From NCBI GenBank assembly GCA_005878385.1, contig VBMN01000078.1, forward strand, positions 1 to 42,651: a stretch of 42,651 bases of DNA, in the 5' to 3' direction. Shown here piece after piece: positions 8 to 38,435 of this stretch. Source of the stretch: Methanobacteriota archaeon (GTDB taxonomy: Archaea > Thermoplasmatota > Thermoplasmata > RBG-16-68-12). A model generated the notes under the pieces. That model saw nothing but the letters and a program-made list of their open reading frames with translations, was not told where the DNA came from and ran no database searches. The translations under genes and the position numbers were made by a program. The first letter of the stretch is position 1. Each line of letters opens with the position of its first letter.

Positions 8-2911
8 TCAGAGCTCGTCGTCCGTGGTGTTTTCGCTGCCAGCGTCCGACTGACCTTCGTCGTCCGAACCTTCGCCCGAGGGCTTCTTGATCACTTTCTT
101 TTGCACAACCGGCTGGGGCCCGATCGGTTTGCGGATCACCCGGCGCGGGATCGCTTCGGTGCCGCCTGGACCGCCGGACTGGGCGCCCGACGAACCGTAG
201 GGGGACGCCTGGCCTCCCGCGGGGCTCTCCGGGGGCGGGCTGCCTCCGGGACGTCGCGCCTGGATCACCGGGGCTGCACCCCCGCTCCCGCCTCCGCTCG
301 GCGGTCGGGGCGTCTCGCGCATGAGCGAACCGCACTTGTGGCAGACGTTGGCCGTGACGGAGTTGAGGGTGCCGCAGGTGGGGCACGGCTTCGAGCCCAT
401 CTTGCGCATCTCCTCTTCCTCGCGGAGCCAATCCTCGAATGTCACGAAGGTCGGCTGCTTGCGCCACCACTCCTGGAACTCGCGGTCAGACAACGCGCGG
501 CCGAGTTGCCGGGATGCTTCCTCCTTGAACTTCGTCACGACCTCGTCGTACTGGAGTCGCATCTTCTCCTGGTAGTCGGCCATCTCGACCTGACCGGTCG
601 CGAACTCGACACCGCACTCGGGGCATTGTTTCACGTCGACCGGGATCCAAGCCTGGCAGTTCGAGCACTTCGCCATGTCCTTCTCGAACTCGACACCGCA
701 CTTCGGGCACGACGTCGCGTCCTCAGGGATGAAGGCGCCGCACTCGCCGCACTCGACCATCTTGCCGAGGCCATAGATCTTCCAGTACAGCGTGACGCCG
801 ATCACCGCCGCGGCCGCTGCCGCGAGGATGATGAAGAACAGCCAATAGGGCAGGCCGAGGATCGGCACTGTTTGGTTCAGGAACGGCACGTTCTTTCGGA
901 CCGAGATGGTCTGTGTGCTCGGCTGGATAGACCCCGCCGTGGGCGTGACGACCACGCTGTAGGATCCGTCCTGCGTACCGGCGGGAACCATGATCATCCC
1001 CACGAACAAGCCTTGGTCTCCCGAGGCGGATTGGTTCGTCGCGACGACGGCCGTGCCGGAACGCAGCTCGATCGTCAGAGAGATGCCGACGATGGCGGCG
1101 TCACTTCCCGTGGCCTTTACGTATCCCGTCACGACAAGTTGGGATCCCGGCTCCACGGACTGGCCCGACCCGGGATTCTGAATCGCGACGTATCCGGCCG
1201 GAGGTGGTGCGACGTTCAGGGTGACGTTCGCGAAGTTGTTGTTCTCCTGGGCGGCCCCACCTTCGTCGATCGTGTTGAGCGGATCGACCACGAGCATGAG
1301 TGTCTGAGCACCGACTTGGTTGATCGCCGCCACGTTCAGGGTCTGGTTCACGGATCCGCCGGTGACGATCGTCAGTCCATTCACCCGCGCGACCTCGGAG
1401 CTGCGGTTCCCGTTCAGATAGGCGGCGATGGACACGGCACTCGCGTCCGTCTGGCCCCGGTTGTAGATCTTGGCGGTCACCGTGAACGGCTGGCTCTGGA
1501 TCACGTTCTGGGTGGAGCTGTAGTCCGTTTGTCGCAGCTCGAGATCGGGTCCCGTCCGGACTTGCACGGTGTTGAAGGTGTACGTGGCCCAGTGGTTGTT
1601 GTCTGCGACACTCACCGCCGGGTACGCGTTGAACGAGACGCCGTCCGTGACCGTCGCGGCCGCGTAGGTCAGAACCTCGCGGAAGTTCCCGAACGACTGT
1701 CCGTTCGGCAACGTCGCGGCTGTGATCTGATCTGTATACAGCGGGATCCTCGCGCGGCCGGTACTGTCCGTCCGGTTCCACGCGTTCAGACCGCTGGCGC
1801 TTCGGCCCAGGTACCACAGTGTGCGCGAGCTCGGGATCGACGAAGGCCCGTTGTCGGGATACTGCGCCGTCGCTCCGGTGGGACTCGACGATGACCAAAT
1901 CCCCGTGCCCGCCACCGCGAACGCGGTCCGGTCGAGGACCGTGGCATCGAGCCAGCGGAACAGATTCACCGCGCCGCCGGGCGCCGGCACAAACGCCGCT
2001 GTCCAGTTCGAGCTGTAGATCGGGTCCTGCGCCCGATCAATCGTGACGTTGTACAGGTACGCCGTCGATGTTCCGTCGACGTGGAATTCGTTGTGAATTC
2101 CGACGACGTTCGAGTAATCCACGCTAAGGTAAGAGTCGTACGCGTACACCGTGCTGGATCCGCTGACGGTCAGGTTGAAGTTCGCCGCACCGCCCCGGCC
2201 TCCCTCAGAGAACCGGCTGTCCTGGTAGATGCGGTCGATCGAGGATCGATAGAGGCTCGCGGTCGTCGACGCGGTCCATGCGATAATCGGGCCGTCGTTG
2301 TTGAGCTCCGAGTCAAGTCCCGAATTCTGGAGTTCCGTGTCGTTGAAGCCGGTGATCGTAGAGTCCGTGATGTTCAGCGAGGCGCCCGTCGCGTTGAACC
2401 ATCCTGGGAATTTCAGCATCGCTCCGTTCGACATGACGAACTGGCTGCCGGCTCCCGAAACGGTCAATGCGAGCTTCAAGTACGGATTGATCGCCGTTGG
2501 GTTGGTTGTGACGACCGAGTTGTCAAGAATCAAGGCGCCACCTGCATTCACCGTCAGGGCGTATCCCATGTGGCTAGCATCCTTCGAGAACTTGAGGCCC
2601 CCGTTGATCAAGGTGAGGCTGCCTCCGGAGTTGATCGTGATCGAACCGTCGACCGTGTAGAATACCCCACTGCAAACCTGGGGTGTGTTGATCGTCCAGT
2701 CCCCGGTGATGTTGATCCCGATCTGATCGCACGAGCCCGCCCGCGTAGCGGGGCTCAGGGCGACAATCGCCGCGAAGATCCCGCCAAGGGCGATGGACCA
2801 TACGATCAAGAGGCTGAGTGCCCTGCCATTCCGTCCGGCTCGGTTCGACATCCGAAGACCTCCCAAGGTCGAGTCCCGCAGAACCTCCGCAATACTGCGA
2901 CCGGTGGGCAT
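8..2911 (-). CDS. Large single-pass surface protein: beta-helix-like repeats, CARDB-like and Ig-like ectodomain, TM helix, cytoplasmic tail with three zinc ribbons and a G/P/S-rich acidic end
   Basis: 967-aa ORF with protein-like composition. N-terminal anchor LSLLIVWSIALGGIFAAIVAL. Repetitive G-x-L-x-L/N-S strands suggest a parallel beta-helix. CARDB-like stretch PDLELRQ..IYNRGQTDA..VDPLNTIDEGGAAQENNN. TM helix LPYWLFFIILAAAAAAVIGVTLYW. Ribbons CGECGAFIPEDATSCPKCG, CSNCQAWIPVDVKQCPECG and CPTCGTLNSVTANVCHKCG. A TATA box lies about 27 nt upstream of ATG 2911. Confidence 0.8.
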   Translation of the reverse strand: MPTGRSIAEVLRDSTLGGLRMSNRAGRNGRALSLLIVWSIALGGIFAAIVALSPATRAGSCDQIGINITGDWTINTPQVCSGVFYTVDGSITINSGGSLTLINGGLKFSKDASHMGYALTVNAGGALILDNSVVTTNPTAINPYLKLALTVSGAGSQFVMSNGAMLKFPGWFNATGASLNITDSTITGFNDTELQNSGLDSELNNDGPIIAWTASTTASLYRSSIDRIYQDSRFSEGGRGGAANFNLTVSGSSTVYAYDSYLSVDYSNVVGIHNEFHVDGTSTAYLYNVTIDRAQDPIYSSNWTAAFVPAPGGAVNLFRWLDATVLDRTAFAVAGTGIWSSSSPTGATAQYPDNGPSSIPSSRTLWYLGRSASGLNAWNRTDSTGRARIPLYTDQITAATLPNGQSFGNFREVLTYAAATVTDGVSFNAYPAVSVADNNHWATYTFNTVQVRTGPDLELRQTDYSSTQNVIQSQPFTVTAKIYNRGQTDASAVSIAAYLNGNRSSEVARVNGLTIVTGGSVNQTLNVAAINQVGAQTLMLVVDPLNTIDEGGAAQENNNFANVTLNVAPPPAGYVAIQNPGSGQSVEPGSQLVVTGYVKATGSDAAIVGISLTIELRSGTAVVATNQSASGDQGLFVGMIMVPAGTQDGSYSVVVTPTAGSIQPSTQTISVRKNVPFLNQTVPILGLPYWLFFIILAAAAAAVIGVTLYWKIYGLGKMVECGECGAFIPEDATSCPKCGVEFEKDMAKCSNCQAWIPVDVKQCPECGVEFATGQVEMADYQEKMRLQYDEVVTKFKEEASRQLGRALSDREFQEWWRKQPTFVTFEDWLREEEEMRKMGSKPCPTCGTLNSVTANVCHKCGSLMRETPRPPSGGGSGGAAPVIQARRPGGSPPPESPAGGQASPYGSSGAQSGGPGGTEAIPRRVIRKPIGPQPVVQKKVIKKPSGEGSDDEGQSDAGSENTTDDEL

Positions 2912-2935
2912 GTTGCGCGGGCCATCCGGGCCCGG

Positions 2936-2945
2936 TTTATAAATA
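2936..2945 (-). promoter_or_regulatory. TATA box (TTTATAAATA) for the 8-2911 gene; leaderless start
   Basis: A/T-only decamer in GC-rich DNA, centred about 29 nt upstream of ATG 2911. The same spacing recurs at about 9 other genes in the window. Confidence 0.55.
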
Positions 2946-3046
2946 GGTTACCGAGCGATTATCTATCGCGATACGGACCTGTTCTCGAGAAAAAGAACGA
3001 CGGGTTCCTATGGAGGAAAGATTTTTATCGTGATTCGTACATGGAA

Positions 3047-3090
3047 ATCGCGAGAAAACCGCGAAATTCGCGGAAAAATCGCGCCAAAAT
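3047..3090. promoter_or_regulatory. About 10-bp phased CGCG + A-tract units containing the inverted repeat CCGCGAA-A-TTCGCGG (3059-3073)
   Basis: Read directly: atCGCGAGAAAAcCGCGAAAttCGCGGAAAAAtCGCGCCAAAAt. It lies 110-150 bp upstream of the 2936 TATA box and just downstream of the stop of 3142-4287. Confidence 0.3.
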
Positions 3091-3141
3091 GCATCGTTCC
3101 ACGCGTGCGGGGGCGCGTTTGTACCCACCACTTCGTTCGGC

Positions 3142-4287
3142 TCAAATCACCTTCTTCTTAAGGACCTTCTTGACGCTCACAGGTGCCTTCTTCGCTCCCT
3201 TCTCATCGTCCCCGCTGAGGCGGTGGCCGCAGGCGTAACACATGATCGCATCCGCGGAGATCATCGTGCCACATGCGGGACAGGGGATTTCCGACTCGTT
3301 TTCCGTTTCCGAGGCTTCTTCCACATCCGATTCCTCGTGCAATCGGTGCCCGCAGGCGTAGCACATGATCGCATCCGCGGAGATCATCGTGCCACATGCG
3401 GGACAGGGGATTTCCGACTCACCTCCCGAGGCGGCCTCCGTCGTCACGGCTGGCTTCCCGGCGGCCTTCGCACTTTGAACCGCAACCACCGGAGCCGCCG
3501 TAGCGGTCTTCGGGGCGACCGACTGGGGGTTCACGGGGATGGGCTGCGGTCGTACGGCCGTAGGCACGGCGGTCGGTGAAACCACAACGCGACCCAAAAC
3601 GGCTGGAGTCGGACTCAAGGGAATCGACGCGGAGGCGCGCATCGATTGTTCCTGCGCAAGCATCTGTTTCTCCTTCTCGAGGAGGCGCTTGCCCTCATCG
3701 GCAATTTTCGCCCGAGCCGTCGCAATCGTTTCCTCTTCGGCCGCGAGCTTCTTCTCACGATCCATCAGCTCGCGACTTCGTTCGATTTGCGTTTGAAGAG
3801 TCGCCTTTTGTTCTTCGAGGAGCTTGACAATCTGTTCTTGCCGTCCCGCGATTTCGTTCTTGCGGGCTGCGATCTCCCGCACGTGCGCGACCGTCTCCGA
3901 ATCTCGATGGGCAATCTCTTCCTCGCGCTTCACGAGCGTGTCGAGCCTCTTCACGAGTTCCTGCTCCCGACTCACGAGTTGGCTTTCCTTCGTCAAGATT
4001 TCCTGTTTCGTCGCGTCGAATTCCTGGTCTCTCTGATCCAATCCTCGTTCCTTCTGCTCGAGTTCCTTCTCACGAGCGCGAAGGCCCTTTTCACGGCCGA
4101 CGACCGAATCGCGTTCGTCCGCGAGCGCGGTCCGCTCCTGTTCCATCATCCGGCGGTCCTCTTCCAGCTTCGAGGCTTGCTCCTGGAGAGACGATTCGCG
4201 TTCCTTGAACTCGGTGTCTCGCGACCTCAGGCTCTCCTCGAGCTTTTTCAGTGCGTCCAGCGCGTCTAGGATTGATGCTTCGGCCAT
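3142..4287 (-). CDS. Coiled-coil protein with a P/A/V-rich linker, two identical C-terminal zinc ribbons and a basic tail
   Basis: 381-aa ORF. About 215 aa are E/K/R/L/Q heptad-rich. ESEIPCPACGTMISADAIMCYACGHRL occurs twice. GGAGGT (4296-4301, minus strand) lies 8 nt before ATG 4287, indicating an operon with the upstream KaiC-like gene. Confidence 0.8.
   Translation of the reverse strand: MAEASILDALDALKKLEESLRSRDTEFKERESSLQEQASKLEEDRRMMEQERTALADERDSVVGREKGLRAREKELEQKERGLDQRDQEFDATKQEILTKESQLVSREQELVKRLDTLVKREEEIAHRDSETVAHVREIAARKNEIAGRQEQIVKLLEEQKATLQTQIERSRELMDREKKLAAEEETIATARAKIADEGKRLLEKEKQMLAQEQSMRASASIPLSPTPAVLGRVVVSPTAVPTAVRPQPIPVNPQSVAPKTATAAPVVAVQSAKAAGKPAVTTEAASGGESEIPCPACGTMISADAIMCYACGHRLHEESDVEEASETENESEIPCPACGTMISADAIMCYACGHRLSGDDEKGAKKAPVSVKKVLKKKVI
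3221..3420. repeat. Intragenic direct duplication: 77-bp units at 3221-3297 and 3344-3420, period 123 bp
   Basis: The two units differ at 2 positions when read by eye. Each encodes one zinc-ribbon module. Confidence 0.9.
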
Positions 4288-4356
4288 GTGCGGCGACCTC
4301 CGGTGTTCGTTCGTGGAGCCGAGCTCTCAGGCATCGGCCGTGGAATCGACATGGGA

Positions 4357-5277
4357 TCACATTCCTCCCGCTTCGAAGATCGGACCCAAGACGGTGAGGC
4401 CGCCCTTACGAATCTCGATCGCGTGCTTCTCCATCGAGTGATCCGTCGAACGCATCTTCTCCACCTGGAGATACCGAACGAGCTTTCCTCGAGAGTGGTC
4501 GAGGCCGAGCAACACGATGCCGTCGACGAGGAAGCCCTCATTGCCGAGGAGCTGGCTTTCCCCGTCCGGGCTTCGTTCCATCACGACGAGGGAGGTCAGC
4601 TCGTTGTCGCGGAGCATCTTGAAGAAATAGAACATCCGCTTGCGCATGTTCGTCGTGTTCTCCATCAGTGAGTACAGGGCCCCGAGCGAGTCCAAGGTGA
4701 AGATCTTGAACTTGTGTCCGTGGACTTTCCGGTAGTGGATGATCATCCGTTCGATGAAGGCGAGGTAATCCGTCTGATCCTCCGGACCGACGACCGCATC
4801 GATCTCGCGCAAATCCGTGAAGTCACTGATCTGCATGTTCATCGAGAGCTCGACGCCGAGCGATTCCATGTTCCGTAGGTGGGACTGGACCGTTTCCTCG
4901 AGCGTGGTGTACAGACCAAACTCCCCGGTGTCCTTCAGGTATCGCGACATGAGCGTGTAGCAAAAGGACGTCTTCATGGAACCGGGAGGGCCGGTCACGA
5001 GGATCACCTTCGGCGGCGAAATGTCGGTGCGGATCACTTTGTCAAGTCCATCAATCGCATTGCGGAAGGCCATGGCCACGCCGTATAGGTCATTGGACGG
5101 GTCCAAGTCCAACTTAATCGTTTTGCGCTGATTATCTACCGGATGACTTATCATTCTCTGGACTGAGTCCGGAAAGTCTTTGTACGCTGGTCCAGGATAG
5201 AAACACGTCGACAAGTCGAGGTGTCGGCTTACGCCAGCGAAGGAAACGAAGGTCTGTCCCGTCTGTGATTCTTCCAT
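4357..5277 (-). CDS. KaiC/RecA-like single-domain ATPase
   Basis: Walker A-like VILVTGPPGSMKTSF (Met replaces the usual Gly before Lys). Acidic pair in YTTLEET. Walker B FKIFTLDSLGAL. The overall KaiC-like layout is preceded by NAIDGLDKVI. ATG 5154 (MISHPVDNQ) is a likely alternative start that avoids overlapping the divergent gene's first zinc knuckle. Confidence 0.8.
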   Translation of the reverse strand: MEESQTGQTFVSFAGVSRHLDLSTCFYPGPAYKDFPDSVQRMISHPVDNQRKTIKLDLDPSNDLYGVAMAFRNAIDGLDKVIRTDISPPKVILVTGPPGSMKTSFCYTLMSRYLKDTGEFGLYTTLEETVQSHLRNMESLGVELSMNMQISDFTDLREIDAVVGPEDQTDYLAFIERMIIHYRKVHGHKFKIFTLDSLGALYSLMENTTNMRKRMFYFFKMLRDNELTSLVVMERSPDGESQLLGNEGFLVDGIVLLGLDHSRGKLVRYLQVEKMRSTDHSMEKHAIEIRKGGLTVLGPIFEAGGM

Positions 5278-5293
5278 CGAGGCGGAAGCCCGC

Positions 5294-6688
5294 GTGTGTC
5301 CTTCCTGTCAGACCGACCTGACGCTGTTCGACCTCGCGGGCGGTCCTCAAGAACCCATCGAGGTGCCCGTGAGAGACGGCCGGAGCATCGACGAGATCCT
5401 CGCCTCGATCATGAACGGCAAGGAAGATCATCGGGAAATCATCGAATCGCTGAAGAGCGTGGCGCGCAACACGTCCGAATCCGGAGAAACCGCGACCGTT
5501 TCCGGGTCCGCCTCCATGATCTCGACCGCACGCGAACTCGGCGAGAAATTCCTCTGTCCCGTGTGCGAGACGCTCGTCGCCGCCGACGCCACCGTCTGTC
5601 CGGCCTGCGGAGCCGAGTTCTCCGAGGGCTCGGCCACCGAGTATGAATGTCCCGTCTGCAAGGCGTCTGTGCCGGCGGACGCCGACCAGTGCCCCAACTG
5701 TGGAGTGCGATTCGCCGATGACAGCGGGGTGGCCAAAGTAGCCCCCCCGGTCCCCGGTCTATCGGGAGCGGTGGTGGACGTGTCGGGGGCGGGAAGGGCT
5801 CCCGCGTTGGCGACCGTCGCCGTGGCGCCGCCTTCCGCGAAACCAACCCGTTCGCCGTTGCAGAATCGGCTGGAAGCGCTCCGGCAGACTCGTCGAGAGG
5901 CGGATCGTCGTATCCCCACGGGCGACCGGAAGCTCCTCTACCGCGAGCTCCCCAAGCTCGTGAACGAGGTGAAGCCCCTCCTGGTCTCCGCGAAACGGAT
6001 CGGGCTCGAGATCGAAGAAGGGAAGCGAATCATCAACGATGCGATTCAGGCAGGGAAAGGGCGCGACATCGAGCGGGCGGTCACGCTCATCGCGGACGCC
6101 CGGCGGGCCCTCGACATCGCCTTCGTGGACTTCATCGGCGGGGGGATCGAGCGTTTCGCGCTAGAGATCCGAGCGGCGAAGGGAGAGGGAGGCGTCGCCG
6201 CCGTGACCCCCGGACTCCTCGAGGCGGTCAGTCGGATGGAGGCGGGTGACTATGACGGCGCCTGGGACACCTACCAGATCGTCCTCGACCGGTTTGAGTC
6301 CGAAGCGAAGGACTTCCATGATGCCCGGAAGACGATCGAAGACGGCGACCGACTCGCACACGAGGTGCGCGGGATGGGGATGGATGTCTCGGCCTCGGAA
6401 CGACTGTTGCGCCAAGCGCGCGAGTCCCTAGAACGGAGGGATGTCGCCACCGCGACGCGTATCGGCACGCAGGCATACGACCGCCTGAAGCGAGATGTCC
6501 CCGAGTTCGTGCAAGAAGAGATGCGAAAGGCCCGGAGCCTGTTGCTCGATCTGAAGCTGAAAGGGAACGACCTCGCCAAGCCGATCGGGATCCTTAAGGA
6601 GGCGAGCACGCTCGTCAAGCGGGAAGCGTGGGCCGAGGCGCTCCGCCAGATTCGGGATTTCCACAAGGAGATTCAACGCCTCGGATGA
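5294..6688 (+). CDS. Multi-zinc-ribbon protein with P/A-rich linker and C-terminal alpha-helical (MIT/TPR-like) repeats
   Basis: Ribbons CPVCETLVAADATVCPACG and CPVCKASVPADADQCPNCG. The first ribbon is split: CPSC follows GTG 5294, but its partner CPVC is encoded in frame at 5255-5266, upstream of any canonical start. Helical repeats include GMDVSASERLLRQARESL and GNDLAKPIGILKEASTLV. Confidence 0.75.
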   Translation: MCPSCQTDLTLFDLAGGPQEPIEVPVRDGRSIDEILASIMNGKEDHREIIESLKSVARNTSESGETATVSGSASMISTARELGEKFLCPVCETLVAADATVCPACGAEFSEGSATEYECPVCKASVPADADQCPNCGVRFADDSGVAKVAPPVPGLSGAVVDVSGAGRAPALATVAVAPPSAKPTRSPLQNRLEALRQTRREADRRIPTGDRKLLYRELPKLVNEVKPLLVSAKRIGLEIEEGKRIINDAIQAGKGRDIERAVTLIADARRALDIAFVDFIGGGIERFALEIRAAKGEGGVAAVTPGLLEAVSRMEAGDYDGAWDTYQIVLDRFESEAKDFHDARKTIEDGDRLAHEVRGMGMDVSASERLLRQARESLERRDVATATRIGTQAYDRLKRDVPEFVQEEMRKARSLLLDLKLKGNDLAKPIGILKEASTLVKREAWAEALRQIRDFHKEIQRLG

Positions 6689-6693
6689 CCTGG

Positions 6694-6712
6694 GCGTCCC
6701 GTCACGGGACGC
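6694..6712. terminator. Hairpin GCGTCCCG-TCA-CGGGACGC between convergent genes
   Basis: Perfect 8-bp stem with a 3-nt loop. The loop is the TGA stop (minus strand) of 6702-8672, and the hairpin sits 6 nt after the stop of 5294-6688. No oligo-T tract is present, so a terminator role is uncertain. Confidence 0.3.
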
Positions 6713-8672
6713 GGATCACTTCCATCTCTCGCTCCAACACCTTCAATTCCTGTTCCTTCACGGTGGCGGATCCCAACGAGATGATCAGGGCGTAATGGCT
6801 TTCCGAGATGGCGTCCAAAAGACGTCGGACGAACTTGAGGACCGCGTCGAAGGAATTGTTCGACACCAGGTACTCGATTCCGTCGAGCAACACGGCGCCC
6901 CGCGGCTGTTTGGACATGAAGTCCTCGATTTCGTACACGATCCGCTCGAGTGCGGGAGCAATCGTGTCTTCGGCGGATCCTTCCCGATCGGTCAGCCACA
7001 GGACCCGTTCCGCAGAGAGATCGTAGGTCTCGCGGACTCGCTTCGGATTCGTCCGGGTGATGACGAGTCCGCCGCCGCGACCGCCGAGAAATGCCGCGAA
7101 CCGACGGAACGCCTCGGCAGGCCGCTCCTCTTCGATCAGGTAGCTCCTTCCCGGCGACAGGCCCTGCAGGCTGATCGGTTCCGCGCGCTCCTGGACCGCC
7201 ACGGGCGGTGGCGCCGCCTCCGACGGCGGCTCGGCGAGGACCTCTCTCACCAGGTCCTCCGTGATCGGACGACCCATCATCGAAGAGAAGGCCACGACCC
7301 GATTGAGCGCTCCCCCGAGTTCGCGGACATTCTCCTCGACGAGGCTCGCAATGAGCTTCAGCACGCCCGGCTCGACCGTCACCTTGGCTTCGCGCGATCG
7401 GCGTTCGAGGATTGCCACCCGCGTGGCCAATTCGGGGGGTTCGATTCCGGCGACGAGGCCGGATTCGAACCGAGAGATGAGGCGTTCGTCGAGGTTTGCA
7501 ATCGCCTTCGGGGGACGATCGCTCGCCAGCACGATCTGCTTCCCGGCGCCGTGGAGGTCGTTGAATGCGTGGAACAGTTCTTCGTGGACCTCCGTCATGC
7601 CGCTCAGAAACTGGATGTCGTCGATGAGGAGACAATCCACCCCTCGAACCCGATCTCGAAAGGCCCCCAACGTGCCCTTCTCGCGGGCGTCCGTGAGACC
7701 GGTTCCGAAGGCCTCGCACGTGAGGTAGAGCACCTTCGCGCCGGTCTCGTGCGACGCGATGTAGTTCCCGATCGCATGGAGAAGATGTGTCTTGCCGAGG
7801 CCCGGACCCGACGTGATCAGGAGGGGGTTGTAGGCCTTCGCCGGCTGTTTCGCTACCGCAATCGCGGCCGTGTGAGCGAACCGGTTGCTCTCTCCGACCG
7901 TGAAGCCTTCGAACGTGAACGCCGGTGCGAGGTTCGTCGCGGCATCCCGCGGAGGGGCCGGTTCCTCGAGGGCTTTTTCGACCTCCTCCGAGGAGGGCAG
8001 CGGAGCTTCGGACTTCATCTCTCGCCGCTGTTTCATGACGAGTTCCAGGACTTTCTTCGTCCGCTCCTTGAACTCGCGTTCCCGCGAGCGTTCGAGGCTG
8101 CGTCGGGACTCGACTCGCCGCATGCTCTCCGTGGCCTCCCGGAGCAACTCGACCTCGGCATCGATGTCTGGATGCCGGATCGGATCGCGGAGCCTCTCCC
8201 GGAGAATTGCGGCCCGCGACTCGAAGCCGGTCACGTCCAGGCTCGCGAGGGCCTCGGAGGCCGCTTCCGCCTTTTTGACGGCTTCCCGCATCGCCAGGAC
8301 CGAGGCGGTCAACACACTCGGCTCCGCGGCGAGGTTCGCCTCGATCACCGAGACGTCGTACGACCGCTCCTTCCACGTCCGAAGTTGGGCCTCGATATCC
8401 CCGCGGTCCAGGGCTTGCGGGACCTTCGTCTTCTTCACGACCTTCGAGGGCCGTTCCAGGACCGCATCCGCGTACTCGCGGACGAGTCCGTCCATGTCCA
8501 CCCGCGCGTGAAGCTCGAGGACGCACGATTCGTCATAGGAGTCCTGCCACACCTTCTTCAGGGCGTTCCGCCCGCGGTCTTGTGCCTCGTCCCGCTGGTG
8601 CAGGCTCGCCTCCGGGTTCCCTCCCCGGAGGAGCACGATTCCCTCCGACCGTTTGCCGCCCGCGGTTCGCAC
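6702..8672 (-). CDS. DnaA-type AAA+ ATPase with a helical/coiled-coil N-terminal half and a C-terminal DUF835-like domain (no DnaA domain IV)
   Basis: DnaA domain III motifs: FTFEGFTVGESNRFAHTAAIAVA, GPGLGKTHLLHAIGN, CLLIDDIQFL, IVLASDRPP, ERLISRFESGL, NVRELGGALNRV. The C-terminus GRSYLIEEERP..VITRTNP..LWLTD..VLLDGIEYL..LKFVRRL..LKVLEREMEV matches the DUF835 pattern. The N-terminus probably extends upstream of GTG 8672. Confidence 0.85.
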   Translation of the reverse strand: MRTAGGKRSEGIVLLRGGNPEASLHQRDEAQDRGRNALKKVWQDSYDESCVLELHARVDMDGLVREYADAVLERPSKVVKKTKVPQALDRGDIEAQLRTWKERSYDVSVIEANLAAEPSVLTASVLAMREAVKKAEAASEALASLDVTGFESRAAILRERLRDPIRHPDIDAEVELLREATESMRRVESRRSLERSREREFKERTKKVLELVMKQRREMKSEAPLPSSEEVEKALEEPAPPRDAATNLAPAFTFEGFTVGESNRFAHTAAIAVAKQPAKAYNPLLITSGPGLGKTHLLHAIGNYIASHETGAKVLYLTCEAFGTGLTDAREKGTLGAFRDRVRGVDCLLIDDIQFLSGMTEVHEELFHAFNDLHGAGKQIVLASDRPPKAIANLDERLISRFESGLVAGIEPPELATRVAILERRSREAKVTVEPGVLKLIASLVEENVRELGGALNRVVAFSSMMGRPITEDLVREVLAEPPSEAAPPPVAVQERAEPISLQGLSPGRSYLIEEERPAEAFRRFAAFLGGRGGGLVITRTNPKRVRETYDLSAERVLWLTDREGSAEDTIAPALERIVYEIEDFMSKQPRGAVLLDGIEYLVSNNSFDAVLKFVRRLLDAISESHYALIISLGSATVKEQELKVLEREMEVIRVP

Positions 8673-8920
8673 GGTCCGGACATAGCCCGAGAACGAGTAC
8701 TTTTTCAGGTCGAGGAGGAGTTGTTTCAGCGCGTTCGCCCCGCCCCGAGTTGTGCGGATGAGTTTGCCCTCTGGGAGCAGGAGGTCTTGGGGCGTAGGTT
8801 TCCCTCGGTCCTTGCGTCCATCTCCCGGGCCCCTCTAAAAAGCTTGCAACCTAGTTCCCCCGTTTGAGAACACAGGCCTGGCTCCCGGGGGAAACCCGCC
8901 ACCGGCGCGATGCAAAAAGG

Positions 8921-13630: not shown

Positions 13631-13646
13631 ACAACTATTCGTGGGG

Positions 13647-13720
13647 AGCCGCCAGGGGGCTTCGATCCCCCGACCTGCAGTTTACGAAACTGCCGCTCTG
13701 CCGGGCTGAGCTATGGCGGC
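13647..13720 (-). tRNA. tRNA-Thr: tRNA-Thr (anticodon CGU), 74 nt, no intron, CCA not encoded
   Basis: Manual fold: acceptor GCCGCCA/UGGCGGC, D-arm GCUC-AGCCCGGCA-GAGC, anticodon arm GCAGU-UUCGUAA-ACUGC, variable loop AGGUC, T-arm GGGGG-AUCGAAG-CCCCC, discriminator U. Confidence 0.85.
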
Positions 13721-17296: not shown

Positions 17297-17325
17297 GCGT
17301 GACCCCTGCATGGAGCGACATCGCG

Positions 17326-18144
17326 ATGGTCGACGACCACATCAAACGCAAGATTCTCCTCCTCGGCGACGGGGCGGTCGGGAAGACGAGCCTGATCCGA
17401 CGCTTCGTGGTGGACAAGTTCTCGGACGAGTACATCACCACGATCGGGACGAAGGTCACGAAAAAGGACCTGCGGATCGAGTCGCCGGGAAAATTCACGG
17501 ACCTGACCTTCATGATTTGGGACGTCCTCGGACAGAAGGGCTACAAGGGGATTCAAGAGAGTTCGTTTCAAGGGGCTAAGGGAGCCCTTCTGATGTACGA
17601 CGTCACGCGACCGGAGACGGCGGAGAGTCTTCAGGACTACTGGATTCCGCACCTGCTCCAGGTGACGAACCCGATTCCGATCGTCGTCGTCGGCAACAAG
17701 GTGGACCTCGCGAATTCCCGACGGGAAGCGCAGGAGGCGCTGGACGATCTCAAGGAGAGCCTCGGCGTGGCCGGATTCCTGAGTTCCGCGAAGACCGGAC
17801 AGAACGTGGAGGCGGGCTTCCTCGCCCTTGCGAAGGCCATGATTTCTCATTCGGATGCGAGGATGTCCCGACGCGAGGCCGTCGAGGAAGTGACGCACGA
17901 GTTCATCGCCGTGACGGACCAGATCATCATGGACTTCTGCGACTCGATGGGCGGTCAAGAGGCCGCGATGCCCATCGTGCGACAACAACTCACCCGCGCG
18001 GGCGTCGATGTGAAAGCGCCGACCCGGGAGGGCCTGCGTCTCGCGGTCGACTATCTGGCGGAAACCGAGTCTTCGTTCCGGAACGCGGCCGACGTCGAGG
18101 AGAGCAAGCGCAAACGTCTCGGTTGGATCAAGGAAGTTGCCTGA
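17326..18144 (+). CDS. Rab/Ras-like small GTPase with an about 100-aa C-terminal helical extension
   Basis: G1 LLGDGAVGKTSL, G2 YITTIGT, G3 WDVLGQ, G4 GNKVDL, G5 SAKTGQNVEAGF. No CAAX motif. Confidence 0.85.
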   Translation: MVDDHIKRKILLLGDGAVGKTSLIRRFVVDKFSDEYITTIGTKVTKKDLRIESPGKFTDLTFMIWDVLGQKGYKGIQESSFQGAKGALLMYDVTRPETAESLQDYWIPHLLQVTNPIPIVVVGNKVDLANSRREAQEALDDLKESLGVAGFLSSAKTGQNVEAGFLALAKAMISHSDARMSRREAVEEVTHEFIAVTDQIIMDFCDSMGGQEAAMPIVRQQLTRAGVDVKAPTREGLRLAVDYLAETESSFRNAADVEESKRKRLGWIKEVA

Positions 18145-37778: not shown

Positions 37779-38435
37779 CTATTTCACCACGAACTGGAGC
37801 GTCACCAACTCAGCGATGTCAATCTCATCGTCGTCTTGAAGTTCAGTACGACCCGTGCCGGTCACGAGGATTCGATCGCTGCCTCGGATGACCCAGGTCT
37901 TATTCGTGCTGGCTTTCCTTTGCACCATCGTCTTCCCGTCTTCGACGAAAAACCTCTCGCCTTCCTGAAAAACGGTGAGATGCCCGCGAGAAATCTCATT
38001 CGCCTTTTCCGGGTCGGGAAGAAATTTGGACACGTCCGCGCGGCCGATCAGCCACTGGGACGGTGGAATCGGCTGCTCCGTATCGTCGGGAAAGACTAAA
38101 TAGCCCGCTTTGGGCGTCTGGGCCGGAGGCTCCTCCTCGGTCTCGACCGATTCGGCGGGCGCCTCGCTCTCGGGCTCCGTCACATCGATTTCAGGCTCGG
38201 GTTCGGCCGTCGAATCGGAGGTGCCTTCCTCGCCAGTGAACATCGAATCGACCGCGCCTTCACCTTCGTCCGCGACTGACGCAAACGCAGGGTCCTGGTC
38301 CTCGGTGGGGGTCGGTGTAGACTGTTGTTCCGGTTCGGCGACCTGGAGATCCAGCCTCCCGCCGCACGCATCGCAGAATCGGGCGTCTTGCCGATTCTCG
38401 CTCCCGCAGTCCGGACAGCTTGCCATGGGCATCAC
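37779..38435 (-). CDS. Zinc-ribbon + acidic linker + FHA-domain protein (ArnA-like architecture)
   Basis: CPDCGSENRQDARFCDACGG, then an E/D/P-rich linker, then LIGRAD..ISRGHLTV..FFVEDGKT. The GTG start overlaps the vWA stop as GTGA. Confidence 0.8.
   Translation of the reverse strand: MMPMASCPDCGSENRQDARFCDACGGRLDLQVAEPEQQSTPTPTEDQDPAFASVADEGEGAVDSMFTGEEGTSDSTAEPEPEIDVTEPESEAPAESVETEEEPPAQTPKAGYLVFPDDTEQPIPPSQWLIGRADVSKFLPDPEKANEISRGHLTVFQEGERFFVEDGKTMVQRKASTNKTWVIRGSDRILVTGTGRTELQDDDEIDIAELVTLQFVVK

Follow-up and report, generated by a model that had tools for sequence, protein, structure and literature searches.

To our knowledge, Archaea are taught to lack DnaA, and KaiC-like ATPases have reportedly been proposed as signalling hubs in these organisms, an idea said to go back to Makarova, Galperin and Koonin in 2017. 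Here we describe a locus in which modules of both kinds occur side by side, in a 42.6-kb stretch of DNA (the window; 42,651 nucleotides of contig VBMN01000078.1) from a Methanobacteriota archaeon of the Thermoplasmata. Five adjacent genes, for which we keep the letters of an initial annotation made from the sequence alone, lie at one end of the window: a encodes a surface protein, b a coiled coil with zinc ribbons, c a KaiC-like ATPase, d a zinc-ribbon protein, and e a protein with a DnaA-type AAA+ module (Table 1); loci of relatives are numbered L0xx and their proteins P0xxx. The core of the locus is the convergent d-e pair, which is conserved across a Thermoplasmata lineage, with c-b as an accessory operon in one order-level clade. 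The constituent families, and the concept of a KaiC-like signalling hub with inactivated KaiC-like (iKaiC) domains, are already known; the architecture is an undescribed one within this known theme.

The likeness of e to bacterial DnaA lies in the AAA+ core and its lid. The top match of this module among solved structures is DnaA (8btg_A, E = 6.4e-75); it matches Pfam Bac_DnaA at 1.7e-57 and scores 309 bits against TIGR00362 (cut-off 343.9), covering profile positions 48-337 of 437. All key motifs are kept, with Walker A, Walker B, the box VII arginine, and sensor II invariant among 12 homologues. The differences lie on either side of this core. No Bac_DnaA_C match was found in e for domain IV, the DnaA-box-binding helix-turn-helix, and the TIGR00362 match ends at position 337; nor was there a DnaA_N match for domain I; the N-terminus belongs to a different small family. 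In place of these domains, e has an apparently PATAN/DUF2226-like N-domain followed by a helical repeat, and DUF835 at its C-terminus. It is also archaeal, with pgk, a transporter gene, and a ProRS gene as neighbours rather than a dnaN or oriC context. Virus-associated archaeal AAA+ proteins of the SSV type (arCOG07960) carry the same "DnaA-like" label, but they belong to mobile elements and resemble DnaA remotely, whereas e is chromosomal, syntenic, and close to true DnaA domain III.

The KaiC clock protein consists of two tandem RecA-like domains (about 500 amino acids, aa), whereas c encodes a single domain that scores 93.8 bits against PRK09302 (cut-off 408), with no KaiA or KaiB family among the annotated neighbours. 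The c product is like other archaeal KaiC-like ATPases in being a single-domain PF06745 protein with conserved Walker A, catalytic glutamate pair, and Walker B. ArlH/FlaH is likewise a single-domain KaiC-like ATPase, and relatives of our locus have a PilB-type ATPase in their wider neighbourhood, but c scores under the ArlH and FlaH family cut-offs and the locus is not an arl operon. Archaeal response regulators, those of Thermoplasmata included, have DUF835 among their output domains, where it is classed as iKaiC (Galperin et al. 2018, PMC5847659). The e protein shares DUF835 with the iKaiC modules (DUF835, MEDS) of that work; in e, however, its fusion partner is a DnaA-type AAA+ module instead of REC or PAS, and the gene pairs with one for a zinc-ribbon protein. 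Finally, the e N-domain profile retrieves DUF2226 and PATAN (DUF4388) proteins, from which e differs in having no direct Pfam match, no REC domain, and no solved fold counterpart. A search of a literature collection, in which DUF835 appears in one paper and DUF2226 in none, found no description of a DnaA-AAA+/DUF835 protein, of the N-domain and repeat family, of its ribbon-fused forms, or of the d partner, although a prior mention in Makarova et al. 2017 is possible.

Domain architecture of e and d

The C-terminal module of e matches DUF835 (PF05763) at 1.3e-27 (96.6 bits; gathering score 33.1). Aligned with c by hhalign, it is colinear over 121 columns, with the P-loop/Walker A deleted and the Walker B aspartate kept, at a weak P of 0.01. 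Genes c and e would share part of their ancestry in KaiC, since DUF835 is an iKaiC domain (PMC5847659) and its alignment with c is colinear. The locus had at first been described as holding two unrelated P-loop ATPases; two ATPase genes are indeed present, but "unrelated" is incomplete if the DUF835 of e is, as published, an inactivated KaiC-like domain.

The N-domain is predicted by AlphaFold2 (AF2) to be a small alpha/beta domain (pLDDT about 80), and its profile retrieves 129 clusters (at 50% identity) from 1.84 billion proteins. Bac_DnaA is found in 40 and DUF835 in 33 of the 70 long members of this family, and some members combine the N-domain with DUF835 and no DnaA module (e.g., at L048 and L049). 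Searched directly against Pfam, neither the N-domain of e nor that of P0037 has a match even at E <= 10. Two weaker matches of the profile, P0300 and P0348, carry Pfam DUF2226 (2e-20 and 1e-13) and DUF4388 (9e-9), a transitive rather than direct link which suggests that the N-domain is remotely DUF2226/PATAN-like. A literature search on DUF2226 returned nothing relevant.

The zinc ribbons of d are recognized by Pfam (DZR 5e-8, Zn_ribbon_3 6.7e-9), and its AF2 model is all helical at pLDDT > 90 over residues ~190-464 of a 464-aa form. When the alignments of the e N-terminus and of d were searched as profiles against PDB sequences, generic ribbons were all that matched. A short helical motif (x-D-V-S/T-x5-L) had been put forward in the initial annotation as common to d and e, and as homology this did not survive comparison: hhalign of the e helical region with the d C-terminal domain gives P = 0.16, and an alignment of 69 repeat units gives P = 0.18 against the same domain. 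The proposed e example, SYDVSVIEANL, falls inside the e helical repeat. The resemblance appears to be a short helix-loop-helix pattern and not demonstrable homology. Homology of the e helical region or repeat unit to the d C-terminus or to b was rejected overall (hhalign P = 0.16-0.41).

Conservation of the locus across genomes

The comparison covered fifty loci, drawn from archaeal and bacterial assemblies with one genome per species, and counts were taken over assessable loci. Where e is at least 52% identical, d is in place in 32/32 loci, c in 27/27, b in 23/24, and a in 22/22, so that the synteny expected in related genomes is borne out; the order in this close group is pgk-e-d-c-b-a, and ProRS, an amidohydrolase gene and, beyond a, a PilB-like ATPase gene are also in place. 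At 37-47% e identity, d remains in four of five loci and in two further loci whose N-domain protein lacks DnaA, while c (0/4), b (0/3), a (0/2), pgk (0/5), and the transporter gene (0/5) are absent from the neighbourhood; in L031, L032, L037, and L039 the genes c, b, a, and pgk are all missing from the neighbourhood together. A further lineage, L054-L057, was found through c (c 75% and e 46% identical) and has pgk-e-d-c-b with three ribbons in b and no a. Genes c and b adjoin each other in every locus that has c, and remain beside d-e in loci whose e is as little as 46% identical. The locus is therefore layered: the pairing of d with e is deep and robust, c and b form a tight pair that accompanies d-e where local order is kept, and a is dispensable.

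The synteny continues past the cluster, as the PilB/T2SSE-type ATPase gene is conserved on the far side of a, just past position 1 and so outside our window: eight related loci extend to this region, and all of them have the gene, at a distance of 0.6-2.5 kb from a. This gene (85-95% conserved) is convergent to a and sometimes follows an MFS-like gene (L051:18646-19404, L052:20313-22112, and six other related loci). In a Woesearchaeota genome (L050:8911-11234), a KaiC-like ATPase gene lies directly upstream of genes for membrane proteins, one of which has DUF835, an independent KaiC-DUF835 adjacency.

Fused relatives of e

Three relatives of 1348-1420 aa (P0301, P0360, and P0367) combine the N-domain with seven or eight e-type repeats of about 100 aa, Bac_DnaA, and a C-terminal double zinc ribbon (DZR) that replaces DUF835, and a fourth (P0285, 996 aa) has the N-domain, eight repeats, and the double ribbon (DZR). 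Their ribbons are 41-45% identical to those of a and d over 53-61 residues, as measured in a six-sequence BLAST database in which E-values are near meaningless. The ribbons are thus part of the same chain as the chassis of N-domain, repeat, and DnaA module in some archaea and encoded by an adjacent gene in others, which points to a partnership of ribbon and DnaA-type ATPase, and the fusions provide the best evidence in support of the two working jointly. All are in ordinary archaeal chromosomal contexts, and none has a d-like neighbour.

Giant relatives (996-1420 aa) are encoded at L058:10001-14263, L059:10001-14071, and L061:2912-9991, the last with two in tandem, one with the DnaA module and one without. 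At two distant loci (L031:15388-16539 and L060:7995-8939), the e homologue has within 2-4 kb of it a gene of the tubulin/FtsZ family and another that is proteasome-related (alpha subunit or PAC2), which may be coincidence.

Probable ACG start codons of d and e

Both core genes probably start at ACG. Gene d had been given a GTG start at 5294, which leaves it two and a half ribbons; the three ribbons claimed for it are present in the extended gene, the first half of ribbon 1 (TPAKETKVCPVCDSSIEAEAR) being encoded in an open, conserved frame upstream of that GTG. No ATG, GTG, or TTG occurs in the d frame within this conserved coding stretch upstream of 5294. Instead, a GAGGTG Shine-Dalgarno (SD) motif is followed 7-8 nt on by ACG in 32/32 related loci, and in L021, L036, and L031, representing three lineages, the stretch from SD to ACG is interrupted by an in-frame stop. 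In outgroups the d start position is occupied by TTG (L048 and L049) or GTG (L054 and L056).

The case of e is similar. Its 3' end at 6702 was called as we find it, but the earlier start at 8672 gives way to the invariant ACG at 8795, to which the frame continues; the homologues have in common the 41 additional N-terminal residues (TPQDLLLPEGKLIRTTRGG...), which are encoded in frame in the window. The ACG is present in 34/34 loci with GAGG(G/T) 5-7 nt upstream, and in distant relatives the codon at this position is TTG or ATG. An ATG upstream of e (8819-8821, minus strand) is out of frame in the window and would open a 31-codon overlapping upstream open reading frame if transcribed; by the usual archaeal TATA-to-start spacing, this ATG would sit 5' of the transcript. 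Programmed frameshifting from it was rejected, as the ATG varies in frame and presence while the SD-like site and ACG are invariant. Sequencing error as the cause of the absent start codons was rejected as well, as dozens of independent assemblies show the same pattern.

Of the threonine codons in seven window genes, 57% are ACG, and ATG is the start codon of the neighbouring genes. Both d and e are truncated or mis-started by gene callers in nearly all deposited genomes. A literature search for archaeal ACG start codons returned nothing relevant. The single tRNA of the window (13645-13720, minus strand) is a tRNA-Thr with anticodon CGT, which reads ACG; this is probably coincidence.

Genes c, b, and a

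Gene c is the most conserved of the cluster (median identity 92%). Its product matches PF06745 at 1.7e-34 (119.6 bits, gathering score 26.6), and its motifs GPPGsMKT, LEET, and LDSLG are invariant in 29 orthologues. It is the single-domain KaiC-like ATPase it was taken for but shorter than the 306 aa (4357-5277) originally assigned, since orthologues have stops across the first 68 codons (5074-5277); gene callers give it 236-240 aa in relatives. The over-extended stretch overlaps the 5' end of d on the opposite strand.

The description of b as a long coiled coil ending in two ribbons is upheld by Pfam (Zn_ribbon_3 2.7e-17, plus coiled-coil-type matches) and by a pattern scan. The GGAGGT reported 8 nt ahead of its ATG (4287) is present at 4301-4296, and from this SD and the 69-nt gap between the genes, c and b are probably co-transcribed. 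Relatives of b in L054 and L056 have three ribbon copies; with the tandem duplication in the window, this suggests recent duplication or concerted evolution of a ribbon repeat that varies in number.

The large ectodomain of a was once annotated as beta-helix/CARDB; CARDB (1.4e-10) is the only family Pfam finds there, and the beta-helix call was not reproduced. The three ribbons claimed for its cytoplasmic tail are confirmed by the pattern scan and by Pfam DZR and Zn_ribbon matches. Gene a has its own TATA element (TTTATAAA, 2936-2943), 24 nt before a leaderless ATG and beyond the terminator-like hairpin that follows b. It is a syntenic but dispensable neighbour, not an obligate member of the module.

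The window and its other features

All five reading frames are found on the strands first assigned to them, and Pfam searches of the five proteins recovered CARDB, KaiC, DZR/Zn_ribbon, Bac_DnaA, and DUF835. The positions of the features are collected in Table 1.

Table 1. Genes, domains, and sequence signals of the d-e locus, with positions in the window.
Feature	Positions	Strand	Description
Gene e	6702-8795	-	697 aa, four modules; 41 codons longer upstream than in the initial annotation
e N-domain	8421-8795	-	Residues 1-125; small family of its own
e helical repeat	8076-8405	-	Residues 131-240; one copy of ~100 aa, WKxxGYDVS...LDVxGFE...KDP
e AAA+ module	7233-7928	-	Residues ~290-521; bacterial DnaA type with lid (Pfam, NCBIfam)
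e DUF835	6705-7178	-	Residues ~540-697; Pfam DUF835, probably an inactivated KaiC-like domain
e start region	8793-8795	-	Invariant ACG, proposed start codon; SD-like GAGGGA 8801-8806; TATA-like CTTTTTAG 8835-8842, whose TAG is an in-frame stop
Gene d	5231-6688	+	485 aa; three zinc ribbons (single plus double DZR), disordered linker, C-terminal helical bundle
d start region	5218-5233	+	SD GAGGTG 5218-5223, 7-nt spacer, invariant ACG 5231-5233 as proposed start codon; in-frame stop TAG 5198-5200
c/d intergenic region	5074-5230		Divergent, 157 nt; TATA-like GTCTTTGTAC 5176-5185, conserved across loci in upstream-DNA alignment
Gene c	4357-5073	-	238 aa; single-domain KaiC-like RecA-superfamily ATPase, motifs intact
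Gene b	3142-4287	-	381 aa; long coiled coil, Pro/Ala-rich linker, two zinc ribbons
Tandem duplication in b	3221-3420		Period 123 nt; two 77-nt cores 97% identical; one ribbon per unit
Terminator-like hairpin	3059-3073	-	Downstream of b, followed by T-run (terminator scan)
Gene a	8-2911	-	967 aa; N-terminal transmembrane segment or signal anchor, large ectodomain with CARDB, second transmembrane segment, cytoplasmic tail with three ribbons, disordered end

The count of eight ribbons in three proteins was reproduced by the pattern scan, with three in a, two in b, and three in d, all CxxC-x10-CxxC. These span 332-5701, and the remaining ~37 kb of the window holds one more, a real local enrichment of 8 versus 1. 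The ninth ribbon (CPDCGSENRQDARFCDAC, 38364-38417, minus strand) is near the N-terminus of the open reading frame 37779-38435.

A transmembrane scan of the five proteins found hydrophobic segments in a alone (residues 30-55 and 681-712); it found none in b, c, d, or e, and nothing places these four proteins at the membrane; e is a soluble protein. G+C content is 59-65% along the whole window, with no compositional break at the cluster, and the deposited close relatives of the window genes come from Thermoplasmata or "Methanobacteriota archaeon" metagenome-assembled genomes of soil and sediment. PADLOC gave no defence-system match, its best E-values (1.8e-4 to 7e-3) falling on generic P-loop or coiled-coil stretches, and PHROGs gave ribbon and generic ATPase matches with no phage family. 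A defence or mobile-element origin is unlikely, as neither search had a meaningful match and e is chromosomal and syntenic. Nine kilobases from e lies a gene for an Arf/Ras/Roc-type small GTPase (17299-18144, plus strand; 272 aa by gene call), a family that is uncommon in Thermoplasmata.

Discussion

We tentatively propose, as the likeliest reading but one that is possible rather than probable, that e is an ATP-dependent oligomerising switch or scaffold and not a replication initiator, that d is its obligate ribbon partner, that c-b is a clade-specific accessory operon, and that a is a neighbour only. In such a mechanism the DnaA-type AAA+ modules of e would self-assemble in the ATP-bound state, and its inactivated KaiC-like end may serve as a docking surface for a KaiC-like ring, for which c is the candidate. 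The ribbons would act as protein-protein adaptors, placed on d (and b) in e-d systems and fused in place of DUF835 in other archaea, and ACG starts behind SD motifs may keep translation of d and e low or regulated, and coordinated. In a fuller version, d-e (with c-b where present) would be an ATP-driven switch for assembly, of a kind not yet described in archaea. Its AAA+ core would have come from a bacterial DnaA by horizontal transfer and lost DNA binding, while acquiring a PATAN-like end as sensor, a helical repeat, and either a double zinc ribbon or a dock made from an inactivated KaiC. Conserved ACG starts would gate the expression of both core genes, as far as we have found the first conserved ACG initiation to be described in Archaea. 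Taken as a whole, this version is speculative and rather unlikely. The initial annotation went further in another direction and proposed a five-gene, ribbon-mediated, membrane-anchored assembly or switch. This is not established: the core is d-e, a is lost in L054-L057 and has its own promoter, and b through e lack membrane segments.

Several observations weigh against the switch proposal. The similarity of DUF835 to KaiC is weak in hhalign (P = 0.01) and otherwise literature-based, and a Foldseek search of the PDB with the AF2 model of e residues 1-290 found nothing at E < 1e-3, the top matches being designed helical repeats or unrelated folds; the same search with the d model also found nothing at E < 1e-3. 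Genes d and e converge on each other, their stop codons 13 nt apart, and are not co-transcribed, and no KaiC-like gene adjoins the distant e-d pairs. In the close group, pgk (28/28) and the cytosine/purine-type transporter gene (25/25) are as constant as the five genes themselves, and the adjacency of c-b to d-e could be inherited gene order. As for the ACG starts, the case is one of conservation and geometry, and about 20 of the 34 loci have the ATG upstream of e in frame, 8-10 codons before the ACG; in the remainder it is out of frame, absent, or ATA.

Another explanation is that only d and e are functionally linked, with c-b and a present by inherited gene order and the shared ribbons reflecting the general abundance of DZR in archaeal proteins. 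The genes for pgk, the transporter, ProRS, the amidohydrolase, and the PilB-like ATPase are kept in the same order in the same genomes, and since such housekeeping neighbours are conserved equally well, synteny within the clade is not proof of functional coupling. The joint disappearance of c, b, a, and pgk in four loci, the independent loss of a in L054-L057, and the separate transcription units also fit inherited order. On the other hand, eight of the nine ribbons in 42.6 kb are in a, b, and d; e carries a KaiC-derived domain and stands two genes from the KaiC-like ATPase c; a KaiC gene lies directly upstream of a DUF835 protein gene in the unrelated Woesearchaeota locus; the fusions join the e chassis to coiled-coil-like repeats and DZR; and c and d have a compact divergent promoter region in common. 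We regard inherited order beyond the d-e pair as a serious but doubtful explanation.

A role on DNA is another possibility, be it in the control of replication, in repair, or in the organisation of the chromosome, with a DnaA-derived AAA+ protein working beside a RecA-superfamily (RadC/KaiC-like) ATPase, an SMC-like coiled coil, and nucleic-acid-binding ribbons. The close relationship of the e AAA+ module to true bacterial DnaA is consistent with this, as are weak recombinase and helicase matches of c in PHROGs, weak SMC-type matches of b, and the position of one giant fused relative between genes for an RFC-like clamp loader, a Cas4/PD-DExK nuclease, and an Lhr helicase. Yet e lacks the DNA-binding domain IV, and its family appears variable at positions aligned with the single-strand contacts of DnaA, which we take to be V211/R245 in Escherichia coli and I190/K222 in Bacillus subtilis. 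The surroundings do not resemble an origin, neither orc1/cdc6 nor dnaN lies nearby, and the domains associated with e (DUF835/iKaiC and PATAN-like) are known from signal-transduction proteins. We consider a role on DNA improbable.

Less probable still is an ArlH-like role for c. In the archaellum, ArlH is a KaiC-like protein that regulates a PilB/ArlI-type secretion ATPase; on this view the cluster would control a type-IV-pilus-like or surface structure that includes a. The PilB/T2SSE-type gene found beyond a in every locus reaching there would supply the partner, c has weak FlaH/ArlH matches, and in cyanobacteria the PATAN domains of PatA-type regulators bind pilus motor proteins. Against this, the c scores are far under the cut-offs (21.4 versus 215 for ArlH and 26.6 versus 194 for FlaH), the PilB-like gene is convergent, outside the window, and separated from the cluster by a and sometimes an MFS gene, no pilin, ArlJ, or PilC genes were seen adjoining the cluster, and a is dispensable.

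In conclusion, a near-canonical DnaA ATPase core has become fixed in a Thermoplasmata lineage without its DNA-binding domain and is wired to domains of the signalling type, which would represent a replication-initiator motor repurposed. Our analysis defines a small modular family in which the N-domain and repeats of about 100 aa are combined with a DnaA AAA+ module and then DUF835 or a double zinc ribbon. The ACG starts on both core genes, if confirmed, would be a rare archaeal case of a non-canonical start that is conserved, and c together with the iKaiC-bearing e provides a concrete, testable pair for the idea of KaiC-like signalling hubs.

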